Virus record (IMG/VR): IMGVR_UViG_3300042013_000056
Coordinates: 118,860 to 182,859 of that record
Source: a virus
Direction: 5' to 3' (one strand)
Length of the DNA: 64,000 bases
Shown here: one piece after another, positions 5,903-20,325 of the stretch
Numbering within the stretch: the first letter of the stretch is position 1
Layout of the letters: each line of letters starts with the position of its first letter
Translations under genes and position numbers: made by a program
The notes under the pieces: model-generated
The model's input: the letters and a program-made list of their open reading frames with translations, nothing else
What the model was told of the DNA's origin: nothing
The model's database searches: none

Positions 5903-5978
5903 TGGTGCAGCCAACGGGACTCGAACCCGTGCTTGGAGAATTTAGAGTTCCCTGCCTTGCCAACTTGGCTATGGCTGC
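5903..5978 (-). tRNA. Amber suppressor tRNA (anticodon CUA)
   Basis: GCAGCCA/TGGCTGC acceptor stem, anticodon arm GGGAA-CT-CTA-AA-TTCTC, canonical T arm, ACCA end. Confidence 0.9.
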
Positions 5979-10881: not shown

Positions 10882-10965
10882 TGGTACGGAATGAGGGATT
10901 CGAACCCTCAAGGGCACGGCTTCTAAGGCCGTTAGCTGTGCCAGATTTGCATTAGCCAATTCCGC
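10882..10965 (-). tRNA. tRNA-Leu(TAG)
   Basis: ACGGC-CT-TAG-AA-GCCGT; large D loop and unusually short variable region; CCA. Confidence 0.85.
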
Positions 10966-13732: not shown

Positions 13733-14019
13733 GGTTCAGTCCGAAGAAGTGGATACTTCTCTTTGAAGCTTTCATGTTGACCACACCCGGAACACACATG
13801 AATGTATTTCGGTGGGTAAGTCAGGTAAGCTTCACCGGTTGCTACGAACTGCCCAACACAATTATTATGATCGGCGTGTACCTGATACGTTCGAACTTCA
13901 ACCTTGCGTTCTGTTAACAGTGCAGCTCTATTACGCTGAAACCGTTCAATCGCTTCTTCTCGGTTCATCATTTCCCACGTTTCTCCACAAGAGACTTTGC
14001 AAAATTGCAAGGCGAACAC
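13726..14019 (-). CDS. Hypothetical CxxC protein (true start probably near 13971)
   Basis: HVCSGCG zinc-ribbon-like motif. Confidence 0.5.
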   Translation of the reverse strand: MFALQFCKVSCGETWEMMNREEAIERFQRNRAALLTERKVEVRTYQVHADHNNCVGQFVATGEAYLTYPPKYIHVCSGCGQHESFKEKYPLLRTEPC

Positions 14020-14384
14020 ATGGTGGTTGTATTGCTGACATTATCAGCACCACCCGCACTTCTCGCTAACGTATGATCATGAGTAAACAGAATCTCATTG
14101 CCCTTTTTATCTTTGCCCCAGAGGTTCAGATGATATGGAAAATCATCAGTCTCTCTGACAGGACGTTCCACCGCATAGTAAGACGCGTGCAGCCCACATG
14201 CAGAACATTTGGTGCTACGATAAAACGTTCTTAACCGGGTTCCGCGACTGAACAGCTTGACTTGTTTACCAAACAGTTCAGTTCTGGGTTGATCCTTTGG
14301 GGAAGCTCCGACGACAGTTTTCTGTCTAGCCCGAATTTCCTTGATGTCAACAACACCTATACGATGATAATCTTGCGGCTTCAT
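13968..14384 (-). CDS. HNH endonuclease-family protein
   Basis: CSACG...FTHDHTLARSAGGADNVSNTTTMCSPCN; has its own promoter. Confidence 0.8.
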   Translation of the reverse strand: MKPQDYHRIGVVDIKEIRARQKTVVGASPKDQPRTELFGKQVKLFSRGTRLRTFYRSTKCSACGLHASYYAVERPVRETDDFPYHLNLWGKDKKGNEILFTHDHTLARSAGGADNVSNTTTMCSPCNFAKSLVEKRGK

Positions 14385-14414: not shown

Positions 14415-14447
14415 AGCATACCAGCATTGGAACAGAATGTAAACATT
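14415..14447 (-). promoter_or_regulatory. Early/middle-type promoter
   Basis: AATGTTTAC-N18-TATGCT. Confidence 0.75.
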
Positions 14448-14458
14448 TGAATCGAATT

Positions 14459-14655
14459 TGGTCGTGGGGGCCGGACTCGAACCAACGACCTTCGGCTTAG
14501 TTGCCGATGCTCTTAAAAACCGATAACCGCCAATGTGTCATCCGGAAAGCAACGCCCATATCCACAAAACACTTCTACTGGCATCTAGCGTCTACTATAT
14601 CGGTCGCGCACCGATGTTCAACATTCGAAATTTAATCCAACTGAGCTACCCCACG
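14459..14655 (-). ncRNA. tRNA-like RNA with a 123-nt insertion in the D loop and a 6-nt anticodon loop
   Basis: CGTGGGG-TA-GCTC-AGTTGGA[insert 14513-14635]GAGC-A-TCGGC-AACTAA-GCCGA-AGGTC-T arm-CCCCACG-ACCA. Confidence 0.75.
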
Positions 14656-14764
14656 TTGCGCCATGGTTTTAGATTCAGACCCATGAACTGAATATTGCCT
14701 TGCGGCTACCTGATACTAAAGTCGGGGTTCCCATTAAAGGGGTATCCAACAATTGCATCAAATT

Positions 14765-14841
14765 TGGCTGGATATCTTGGAATCGAACCAAGCTCAAGTG
14801 ATTAACAGTCACCCCGCAGCCGCCATGGCGCGTCATATCCA
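14765..14841 (-). tRNA. tRNA-Asn(GTT), copy 1
   Basis: CT-GTT-AA, G73, CCA. Confidence 0.88.
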
Positions 14842-14849
14842 ATTTAATT

Positions 14850-14925
14850 TGGTGGGGTTCTTTGGATTCGCACCAACAACTGCGAAGTCGATGCCACGCC
14901 GCTTTCCTAATTAAGCTACAACCCC
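14850..14925 (-). ncRNA. Aberrant tRNA-like RNA (irregular anticodon arm, TGCGAAT T loop)
   Basis: GGGGTTG acceptor, D stem GCTT/AAGC, ACCA. Confidence 0.6.
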
Positions 14926-14994: not shown

Positions 14995-15071
14995 TGGCTC
15001 CGGTAGTAGGACTCGAACCTACGACCTGACGGTTAACAGCCGCCTGCTCTACCAACTGAGCTATACACGGA
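14995..15071 (-). tRNA. tRNA-Asn(GTT), copy 2
   Basis: CT-GTT-AA; bulged nucleotide in the acceptor stem; CCA. Confidence 0.87.
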
Positions 15072-18823: not shown

Positions 18824-20221
18824 TTACCAGTCGTAACGCGGAACGTTCAGAGTGTCCAACATCATAGACAGTGGGGTCACTTCTGGAACATCAGTTGCCG
18901 CCAGAATCGATTTCATGATTGCTGGACTGAATCCAGTAACCATCGCAGTACCACCAACACCGAAGCTAACTGGCACGTTACCGAAACTGGAGTTCATGTT
19001 CCAGAAAATGATGTCCGGGCGTTTGTAGCCAGCGGCTGCATACATACGGTCAATCATTTCGAACGCTGAATCATTTTGGAAACCACGGTCCACGCTATTG
19101 AACTGCATGTCAGACCACAACAGAATCTTGGTCGGCATGTCTTCAACCGGAACTTTGTGTTTCACCGCCGATTTCAGAATCAGTTCGAACGACTTTTGCA
19201 GGTTGGTAGAACCACCCCACGGTGCAGATTTTGTCTTGCGAACACGTTCGGTCAGTGTCTTGCAGTCCGACAGGTCCACCCATGTAGGGTTACTATCAAA
19301 CGTGATGAACTGATCCTTGAAGATGCCCTTGGAACGCTCTGCAACGTAGATACCCAGAGATACCGCCACATCCATACAGGTCAGGCCCGGAGACGCGTTG
19401 TAGTTGCTCATAGAGCCCGACACATCGACGATACCAATCAGGTTCTCTTTCGAGTCTGCAAGGTAATCTGGCAATGCTTTCCACTGCGCATCAGCAACAC
19501 CCTGAACACCATTCAAACCGCGAATGACATCGTAAGGGAAGATCGCACCGGCATTGATGGTGGTTTTGCCTGTAGCAAGACCGTCAACCCATTCTTGGTA
19601 CGCTTCTGGTGCATTACGCTTGAATGCCTTCTGGTAGTTCTTCGACGCAACCGATGGAAGCTTGCTGAAATCGATTTCGTTCCACTGCTGGGCACACATC
19701 TTCTGTTCAACAGTGTTGGACAGCTTGACGATCATTTTGCGGTAGTTGCGTTCGGTCAATTCGAACTGATTCATGAAGAACCGAGAATACTTCTTGCCTT
19801 CACGCGGCATCCACTTCGCACACAGACCGTTATTGTCAAGCAGAGCCTGAGCAACGATTTCAGTGATAACGAAGTCCAGTTGCTCACTGATACCGATCAG
19901 TTGCCACAGGTCATCCCAACGACCAACTTCCGGGATTTTTGCGATGATACGCGCTGTGGTGTGAATGTGTTGTTCACGGGCGATTTGCCCCATCAACGAA
20001 CGGAAAGTCTGACGTTCACCAGCACCACCGCGAATATCACGAACCCACAACAGTTGACGAACTGCCAAATCGGCATCTTCGTTGTACGCAGCACGGAACT
20101 GGCTCGACAGGTCAAGACCACGGGCCGAACCGATCTTGGCGAACAGATCGACGTTTGCATTGAAGCTGGTTTTCTGTGCAGCCATACCGTTGGTGGTACG
20201 AGTCATGTTAGTTTGATTCAT
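18824..20221 (-). CDS. TROVE/Ro60-like RNA-binding protein with C-terminal vWA domain (DUF2828-type)
   Basis: Start trimmed to ATG 20221 (promoter lies at 20260-20292). N-terminus TTNGM...VDLF, RDIRGGAGER, GRWDDL, AKWMPRE; vWA MIDAS DVSGSM. Confidence 0.8.
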   Translation of the reverse strand: MNQTNMTRTTNGMAAQKTSFNANVDLFAKIGSARGLDLSSQFRAAYNEDADLAVRQLLWVRDIRGGAGERQTFRSLMGQIAREQHIHTTARIIAKIPEVGRWDDLWQLIGISEQLDFVITEIVAQALLDNNGLCAKWMPREGKKYSRFFMNQFELTERNYRKMIVKLSNTVEQKMCAQQWNEIDFSKLPSVASKNYQKAFKRNAPEAYQEWVDGLATGKTTINAGAIFPYDVIRGLNGVQGVADAQWKALPDYLADSKENLIGIVDVSGSMSNYNASPGLTCMDVAVSLGIYVAERSKGIFKDQFITFDSNPTWVDLSDCKTLTERVRKTKSAPWGGSTNLQKSFELILKSAVKHKVPVEDMPTKILLWSDMQFNSVDRGFQNDSAFEMIDRMYAAAGYKRPDIIFWNMNSSFGNVPVSFGVGGTAMVTGFSPAIMKSILAATDVPEVTPLSMMLDTLNVPRYDW

Positions 20222-20259
20222 TATGTATTCTCTCACAAGTTGTTCTGATTTATGTGCCC

Positions 20260-20292
20260 ATCGTAGCATGGTTTGATTCTGTTTTAAACATT
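20260..20292 (-). promoter_or_regulatory. Early/middle-type promoter
   Basis: AATGTTTAA-N18-TACGAT upstream of the TROVE-like gene. Confidence 0.7.
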
Positions 20293-20325
20293 GGAACAGA
20301 ATTATTTTCACAAATGTTTAGGCGT

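Follow-up and report, generated by a model that had tools for sequence, protein, structure and literature searches.

Related RNAs in phages and other organisms

In its tRNA cluster, beside the homing endonuclease gene segB, phage T4 carries the genes of two small stable RNAs, RNA C and RNA D (species 1 and 2; 139 and 119 nt). RNA C has a T-arm-like end, CCGGG-TTCGAAT-CCCGG, and no function is known for either RNA. The bacterial and phage Y RNAs of the Ro60/Rsr system, YrlA and Yrn1 (RF02553), are non-decoding mimics of the D, T and acceptor parts of tRNA combined with a second module, their genes lie near a Ro60-type gene, and in Deinococcus radiodurans Yrn1 a 5-bp 'anticodon' stem carries a 6-nt loop (PMC4201824). 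A tRNA-like acceptor/T-arm body with a large extra domain is also found in tmRNA, which has G3:U70, a tag frame and pseudoknots and lacks a D stem and an anticodon arm. Intervening sequences outside position 37/38 are known from archaeal tRNA genes, where introns at non-canonical sites, including the D arm, are removed at bulge-helix-bulge motifs (PMC4090602), and the tRNA genes of Lak megaphages contain unexplained, highly conserved 'enigmatic introns' on the anticodon side, which were recognised via eukaryotic tRNAscan settings and leave normal tRNAs (PMC6784885).

The RNA gene described here resembles each of these systems in part. It lies in a phage tRNA cluster beside an endonuclease gene as do RNA C and RNA D, whereas those RNAs have no complete cloverleaf, D-loop graft or anticodon arm and no sequence similarity to it. 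It combines tRNA parts with a second module as the Y RNAs do, but the ends of Y RNAs pair into the Ro-binding stem, while the present RNA closes with a true acceptor stem and CCA and carries the module in its D loop. Unlike tmRNA, it retains both the D stem and the anticodon arm. In contrast to the archaeal introns, the host is bacterial, inspection of the junctions allows no bulge-helix-bulge and the joined 'exons' would not give a tRNA able to decode; in contrast to the Lak introns, the insert occupies the D loop, and what is left without it could not decode. Neither Rfam nor the literature searched contained a natural tRNA, or an RNA resembling one, whose D-loop variable pocket carries a grafted structured domain.

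Architecture of the RNA gene

The window, that is, the whole stretch of 64,000 nt that was analysed, is the final 64 kb of a 182,859-bp IMG/VR virus record. It carries a co-oriented array of tRNA genes on the minus strand, from about 3.5 to 22 kb of the window, in which ARAGORN predicted 32 tRNAs. The RNA gene lies in this array and is present as a single copy in the whole virus record. Its parts are as follows.

14459-14655, minus strand: tRNA-shaped RNA gene of 197 nt with encoded CCA (identified from the sequence, by a purpose-built scanner, and by covariance model R1 with 202 bits)
14649-14655, minus strand: acceptor stem 5' strand CGTGGGG, whose partner CCCCACG is at 14463-14469 (7/7 paired in every member)
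14636-14646, minus strand: D stem 5' strand GCTC (14643-14646) and start of the D loop, AGUUGGA, with A20 as its last base (14636-14642); invariant in 8/8 members
14514-14635, minus strand: inserted domain of 122 nt between A20 and A21 (121-125 nt in 8/8 homologs)
14616-14635, minus strand: J1, the conserved leader of the insert, UUAAAUUUCGAAUGUUGAAC (near-invariant across type A)
14599-14615, minus strand: hairpin Pa, ATCGGT/ACCGAT, with a palindromic loop containing GCGC (stem covaries; GCGC in 8/8)
14514-14587, minus strand: long hairpin Pb of about 25 bp with internal loops and the apical sequence GGGCGUUGCUUUCC (supported by covariation)
14508-14512, minus strand: D stem 3' strand GAGC (14509-14512) and A26 (14508), from the sequence layout
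14492-14507, minus strand: anticodon arm TCGGC-AACTAA-GCCGA with a 6-nt loop (stem 5/5 paired in every member)
14459-14491, minus strand: variable loop AGGTC, T arm GTTGG-TTCGAGT-CCGGC, acceptor 3' strand, A73 and CCA (unique within the window)

U8 and A9 are present between the acceptor and D stems, and U8, A14, G18, G19, A21, C48, the T loop and the four tRNA stems are all there, being either invariant or covarying; A20 is kept alongside G18 and G19 in all eight members. The insert runs from the conserved 5' leader through the short hairpin Pa to the long hairpin Pb, the base of which is formed by CUAGAUGCC and GGUUUUUA. The acceptor stem, the D stem (GCTC/GAGC), the anticodon stem, the T arm, the ACCA end and the 6-nt anticodon loop AACTAA had all been read from the letters in the initial annotation, and each of them was borne out, on the minus strand. 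The D-loop insertion itself also stood, although its size becomes 122 nt (14514-14635) instead of 123 if A21 is counted as part of the D loop. The helices ATCGGT/ACCGAT and GTGT/ACAC of the insert proved to be real and to covary across homologs. The proposed closing helix TTAAA/TTTAA was not upheld: the comparative model pairs the 3' U-run with the conserved CUAGA..GCC at the base of the long hairpin, and the 5' TTAAA is missing from phage contig L009. Since the single-sequence fold of the 197-nt RNA is not unusually stable (z -1.39), the case rests on comparative evidence.

Homologs and distribution

Eight distinct homologs of the RNA were collected from two cultured phages, IMG/VR and metagenome contigs. 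The nearest cultured relatives are the Pseudomonas phages Milchi (host P. poae), in which a syntenic 194-nt gene is annotated 'tRNA-OTHER', and Astolliot (host P. syringae), which has the same sequence unannotated; pattern scans added the IMG/VR contigs L003, L004 and L006 and the metagenome contigs L009 and L010, while L013 repeats L004 and was not counted as a separate member. The purpose-built scanner, which looks for a T arm, an acceptor stem, a D stem and an anticodon stem together with a long D loop, recovered the layout at 14459-14655 and, overall, exactly the eight members and one false positive formed by adjacent tRNAs. In each member the D loop is 129-133 nt long. Absence of conserved homologs had been named in the initial annotation as what a pseudogene with a random insertion would show; instead, all eight homologs carry an insert of 121-125 nt in the same place.

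The same pattern run over 185,579 prokaryote genomes returned adjacent-tRNA false positives only. Covariance model R1, which was built from five members with an effective sequence number of 1.11, found no further insert-bearing or 6-nt-loop copy in 55 loci around related genes or in five related phages with complete genomes of 149-209 kb, and members sought through relatives of the neighbouring HNH protein came from the same clade only. The D-loop-insert RNA is confined to one clade of large Pseudomonas-type phages of about 175-183 kb, which occur in rhizosphere, plant and food metagenomes.

Conservation and covariation of the fold

Among the five type A members (the insert types are described below), 91.6% of cells pair. 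Double compensatory changes were found in 17 of the 50 pairs, as compared with 7.0±1.9 after shuffling and 1-7 in slid-partner controls. When the type B member L009 was threaded on the model, the number of double-change pairs was 25 versus 11.9±2.1 for shuffled sequences, a count that is favoured because the alignment of L009 was fitted to the model; furthermore, the covariation counts are partly phylogenetic, because the sequences come from a single phage clade with the effective sequence number given above. Compensatory changes occur in 3/7 pairs of the acceptor stem and, across the family, in 4/5 pairs of the anticodon stem, which appears as TCGGC/GCCGA, TCACC/GGTGA, CCGGC/GCCGG, TGGCC/GGCCA and TGGTC/GACCA. 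Within the insert, the Pa stem exists as CCGG/CCGG, TCAG/CTGA and GGC/GCC, and in Pb double changes affect 9 of the 21 pairs within type A and 13 once L009 is included. Many of the pairs are G-U, and therefore the fold is that of the minus-strand transcript and not of duplex DNA. Between phages, the tRNA body is 85-100% identical, as against 62-81% for the flanks, about 71% for the HNH genes and 73-79% for the insert. This conservation, together with the covariation, rules out a pseudogene with a random insertion.

In textbook tRNA structure, position 20/21 is the variable pocket on the outer side of the tRNA elbow. A domain placed there can exit the L shape with the contacts between G18/G19 and the T loop unbroken, and the contact nucleotides are invariant.

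Several other ideas about the insert were rejected. It is not a mobile MITE-like element, being single copy in the 183-kb genome with an empty site found neither in four metagenome DNA runs nor in the 55 loci and five phages. Pairings between the anticodon loop and the insert, UCUA:UAGA in type A and GCGA:UCGC in type B, were noticed post hoc and are not significant, and a loop-E/sarcin-ricin-like GAA/AGUA internal loop around Pa does not hold up in 3 of the 8 members.

Comparison with known RNA classes

Of the 32 tRNAs predicted by ARAGORN in the window and the 29 found with Rfam, none is at 14459-14655, where the Rfam tRNA model RF00005 gave no match even at E up to 10, while the same model tolerates inserts of 42-45 nt elsewhere, in tRNAs of gut phages. 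Rfam searches with gathering and lenient thresholds over the window and four homolog loci assigned the RNA to no known family; group I/II intron and ribozyme models and the YrlA/Y RNA model RF02553 were likewise without match (E up to 10 in the window, up to 5 in the homolog loci). A group I intron needs at least about 200 nt. The view that group I/II introns do not fit, taken in the initial annotation, is thus supported by the 122-nt length of the insert, its position in the D loop and not in the anticodon loop, and the lack of an Rfam match, and the same view of tmRNA holds as well, with an anticodon arm present and no tmRNA called by ARAGORN. For an intron of the bulge-helix-bulge type, the junctions GGA|UUAAA and UUUUUA|AGAGC were inspected: the exon ends are not complementary, and no arrangement of a 3-nt bulge, a 4-bp helix and a 3-nt bulge can be drawn at them.

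A tmRNA-like tag was also considered and rejected. The ATG frames in type A have 8-10 codons and encode differing peptides (MLNIGARPI, MLKAGERTGD, MSKAGERTGE, MLKRQKAR) without a ribosome-binding site, and an ATG is missing from type B. An amber suppressor was dismissed too, as CUA would require a 4-bp stem with an 8-nt loop, a reading that works neither for L004 (CUG) nor for type B.

The 3' half had been likened to E. coli initiator tRNA. The likeness is genuine, with 85% identity over 41 nt to enterobacterial tRNA-Met, and each E. coli genome contains four of the matched genes, a number consistent with the initiator type. It does not extend to identity as an initiator, which was rejected because the hallmarks are missing: 1:72 is the pair C1-G72, 11:24 is C11:G24, and three consecutive G-C pairs are lacking.

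The window contains further tRNA-like genes of its own. At 5903-5978 on the minus strand, ARAGORN places an amber-suppressor tRNA (anticodon CUA), which it labels tRNA-Pyl; the long structural ORFs of the window nonetheless stay open when read with the standard bacterial code. Three matches on the minus strand were made by Rfam and missed by ARAGORN (14853-14925, 10885-10965 and 14999-15070), the first of which reaches no more than 30 bits and shows an irregular anticodon arm. Degenerate tRNA-like genes cluster beside the 197-nt RNA gene.

Anticodon loop and arginine features

A canonical decoding tRNA has an anticodon loop of 7 nt, with U33 and a purine at 37. In the RNA described here the loop has 6 nt in 5/5 members of type A; in type B it has 7 nt, with C33, in the two cultured phages and 8 nt in L009. 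Under equally strict rules, 342 of 343 ordinary tRNAs from the same loci have a 7-nt loop and none has a 6-nt loop; off-size anticodon loops are limited to the members of the D-loop-insert family. Because the loop is off-size, the RNA should be unable to decode, and non-decoding is, on the sequences compared, quite likely.

The identity set of bacterial tRNA-Arg consists of A20, C35, U/G36 and A/G73, with A20 being the main arginine determinant in E. coli (PMC9976931, Table 1). In the phage loci compared, an A directly after G18G19 is found in 50 of 59 tRNA-Arg and in 41 of 667 other tRNAs; it is present in 8/8 of the D-loop-insert RNAs, as is A73. The type A loops read A(U/A)CU(A/G)A, where the tRNA-Arg(UCU) loop of these phages is always CUUCUAA, and the type B loops read C(C)CGCGAA, where the tRNA-Arg(ACG) loop of the window is CUACGAA. 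The loop ends UCUAA and CGCGAA match those of the two tRNA-Arg isoacceptors of these phages, but, unlike tRNA-Arg, they have 6 nt, or C33, or 8 nt, and a 122-nt domain follows A20 directly on its 3' side. The loop of the window is AACUAA and not AUCUAA, and the numbering of C35/U36 is uncertain because 'position 35' is ill-defined in a 6-nt loop.

Among ordinary tRNAs, R1 matched initiator-like tRNA-Met best and tRNA-Arg(UCU) genes next, and the tRNA body has no clear closest paralog (55/75 for tRNA-Asn, 53/75 for tRNA-Arg(UCU)). Mimicry of the stem of the phage's own tRNA-Arg was rejected, as the anticodon stems do not track each other. The arginine resemblance, which was drawn post hoc from sequence comparison, is suggestive.

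Two insert alleles and strain-level exchange

The inserts fall into two types, type A in the window, L003, L004, L006 and L010, and type B in Milchi, Astolliot and L009. The types are alike in position, in length (121-125 nt), in the GCGC hairpin and in the long 3' hairpin, and the sequence similarity between them is weak (z 1.5-4.0); homology of the A and B inserts rests mainly on common position, length and fold. When L009 (type B) was compared with L004 and L016 (type A), the flanks were 78-94% identical, and positions 21-169 of the element, comprising the insert and the anticodon arm, were swapped for the other allele, with break points that fall in conserved tRNA sequence.

An allele free of the insert was found neither among the eight homologs nor as an insert-skipping contig in four metagenome DNA runs from three studies; the only RNA runs contained under 10% of the sampled words. 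The only joints in the DNA runs lie upstream, from 14658 onward, 3 bases off the 5' end of the RNA. The segment at 14658-14839, which holds an upstream hairpin and tRNA-Asn, is replaced by about 188 other bases in three of the runs, and in the fourth run 138 bases stand in place of 14710-14839; the segment borders are strain-level recombination joints. The hairpin, which is conserved and lies at 14662-14692 on the minus strand with the stem CATGG/CCATG, is unique in the window. Its stem covaries (CGTGG/CCACG in Milchi, CCGGG/CCCGG in L003 and L010), and its 5' TTCAG is complementary to the loop CTGAA, with which a pseudoknot is possible. It has no Rfam match and is missing upstream of L004 and L009.

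Neighbouring genes

Three features lie around the RNA gene.

13968-14384, minus strand: HNH endonuclease ORF of 138 aa directly downstream of the RNA gene (Pfam HNH/HNH_5)
14415-14443, minus strand: promoter-like site TTTACA-17-TATGCT with TG, facing the HNH ORF (from a consensus scan only)
18824-20311, minus strand: 495-aa ORF for a DUF2828 + DUF7788 (vWA) protein, 4.2 kb from the RNA gene (domain matches)

The HNH ORF is located 60-95 nt downstream of the RNA in 8/8 homolog loci, with 48-89% amino acid identity, and a stretch similar to the promoter-like site, GTTTAGA...TATGAT, is found at the same place in L004 and L006. The ORF is linked to the RNA gene and is probably not part of the RNA. 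More distant HNH relatives occur in unrelated contexts and not beside tRNA-like genes, and because they sit in unrelated places the enzyme seems to be a homing endonuclease that has settled next to a conserved gene, an arrangement that, by analogy, resembles the T4 tRNA cluster with segB. In Pseudomonas phage pf16 (L120:303-1718), an HNH homolog with 42% identity lies near a tRNA cluster, and a hypothetical protein of 471 aa, similar in size to the DUF2828 protein, is encoded about 800 bp upstream of it, separated by two small ORFs; a D-loop-insert RNA is neither annotated nor visible at that locus.

As for the DUF2828 protein, weak Ro60-vWA matches were obtained in 8 of 25 relatives. The 495-aa ORF is probably over-extended at its GTG start, as matches to homologs start at residues 28-36 and a stop interrupts the corresponding leader of the L015 homolog.

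Interpretation and alternative explanations

It is very likely that the gene encodes a real, functional structured RNA, and the insert is probably retained in the mature molecule. The best reading, which we give about an even chance, is a stable, non-decoding tRNA-Arg-like RNA that displays a cargo domain. The RNA gene would be transcribed along with the phage tRNA array, and the acceptor/T-arm stack, the D/T-loop contacts and the encoded CCA would lead RNase P and the 3' trimming enzymes to release the 197-nt RNA. The L-shaped core would remain intact, and the 122-nt two-hairpin domain, grafted at the exposed 20/21 elbow, would project outward as cargo. Because the body appears to match the bacterial arginine identity set, with A20, A73 and what may count as C35 and U/G36, and has a mis-sized loop, the RNA may act as a mimic of tRNA-Arg that engages a protein recognising it, either ArgRS or a nuclease or modifier directed at tRNA-Arg, while the extra domain could block, tether or recruit something, making the RNA a decoy or an adaptor. 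That it is specifically an arginine mimic or decoy is possible but somewhat doubtful, and the decoy reading gives no reason for the 122-nt domain.

Of the two suggestions made in the initial annotation, a tRNA chassis displaying cargo and a removable intervening sequence, the former fits the data: the core and its tertiary contacts are conserved, the insert is at the exposed 20/21 position, and the covarying two-hairpin domain is found in every member. The latter gained no support. Removal by proteins that excise the 122 nt and rejoin the ends, giving a new kind of phage tRNA intron and a tRNA-like product of about 75 nt, seems quite improbable to us. The insert does lie between intact halves of the D arm, its removal would restore a normal 8-nt D loop, and other unexplained inserts exist in phage tRNAs, namely the Lak 'enigmatic introns' (PMC6784885) and the 42-45-nt cassettes in anticodon stems of gut phages. 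Splicing, however, would rescue no decoder, because the product would still have a loop of 6 nt, 7 nt with C33, or 8 nt; in addition, the insert has conserved blocks and covarying helices of its own, no intron, ribozyme or other Rfam model matched at E up to 10, inspection of the junctions allowed no bulge-helix-bulge, and, at the gene level, no insert-free paralog or allele was found in the four DNA runs, the 55 loci, the five phages and the 343 tRNAs. A selfish DNA insert that travels with the HNH gene by 'collaborative homing', interrupts the target of the enzyme in a tRNA gene, thereby shielding its carrier, and leaves the RNA jobless would agree with the constant presence of the HNH ORF, with the mobility of this HNH family into unrelated contexts, with the exchange of alleles between similar phages at breaks in conserved tRNA sequence, and with the strain replacement at the 5' edge of the RNA (14658). 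A functionless gene would decay, and the maintenance of all four tRNA stems and the insert helices by compensatory changes therefore speaks against such an insert, as do the invariance of all tertiary-contact nucleotides, the failure to find an empty site in the same runs, loci and phages, and the G-U pairs, which are strand-specific and point to RNA rather than DNA; we consider this explanation just as improbable.

A role as a Y-RNA-like partner of the Ro60-like DUF2828/vWA protein, with the D-loop domain as docking site, would draw together the nearby gene and the weak Ro60-vWA matches of its relatives, the presence of the DUF2828 protein on all three IMG/VR contigs that carry the RNA, the cassette-bearing tRNA-shaped genes that distant phages have directly before the DUF2828 gene, and the tRNA mimicry of Yrn1 with its 5-bp stem and 6-nt loop (PMC4201824). 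Co-occurrence is inseparable from shared ancestry, though, and the five complete related phages have the DUF2828 protein without the RNA. The topology also differs, with ends that pair as a tRNA acceptor and carry CCA, the YrlA model gave no match, and the ACAGCAA cassette, the mark of RNAs adjacent to DUF2828 genes, is missing from 14459-14655. There is, in our judgement, an equally small chance that this account is correct. If, instead, the cargo-displaying RNA is made as predicted, a tRNA elbow would carry a large cargo with the L shape kept, which would extend the growing collection of tRNA-shaped non-coding RNAs of phages by a new architecture, and its carriage by two cultured phages, Milchi and Astolliot, makes direct testing possible. 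A more specific proposal, which is unlikely on present sequence comparisons, is that the RNA is a tRNA-Arg mimic that binds ArgRS or can be aminoacylated and that bears an elbow effector directed against a host system sensing or cutting tRNA-Arg, the UCU- and GCG-type alleles being the product of an arms race; if true, a tRNA frame would underlie a new class of anti-defence RNA.

tRNA-like genes near DUF2828 genes in other phages

The motif (A/T)ACAGCA(A/G) occurs 27 times in the window as compared with 8.7 expected and not at all in 14459-14655; seven copies on the minus strand, between 9241 and 18081, lie between genes of the tRNA array. In gut-phage contigs (L052-L094; for example, L066:8630-9330 and L064:5383-5497), one to four tRNA genes of 112-128 nt stand directly before the DUF2828 gene, and each contains in the 5' strand of its anticodon stem a 42-45-nt cassette made up of a closing stem, a hairpin and ACAGCAA. 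Removal of the cassette yields a perfect 5-bp stem with a 7-nt loop, for instance that of tRNA-Val(UAC) in L064, and Rfam scores these cassette-bearing genes as tRNA with 42-45 bits. Another gene, called 'tRNA-???' by ARAGORN and starting with CCTACGATAGCATAACTGGAAATGCC, was found at L066:6835-6908 and at 15 other gut-phage loci; with its oversized anticodon loop and an A after G18G19, it appears to represent a further non-canonical family of tRNA-like genes in the vicinity of DUF2828 genes.
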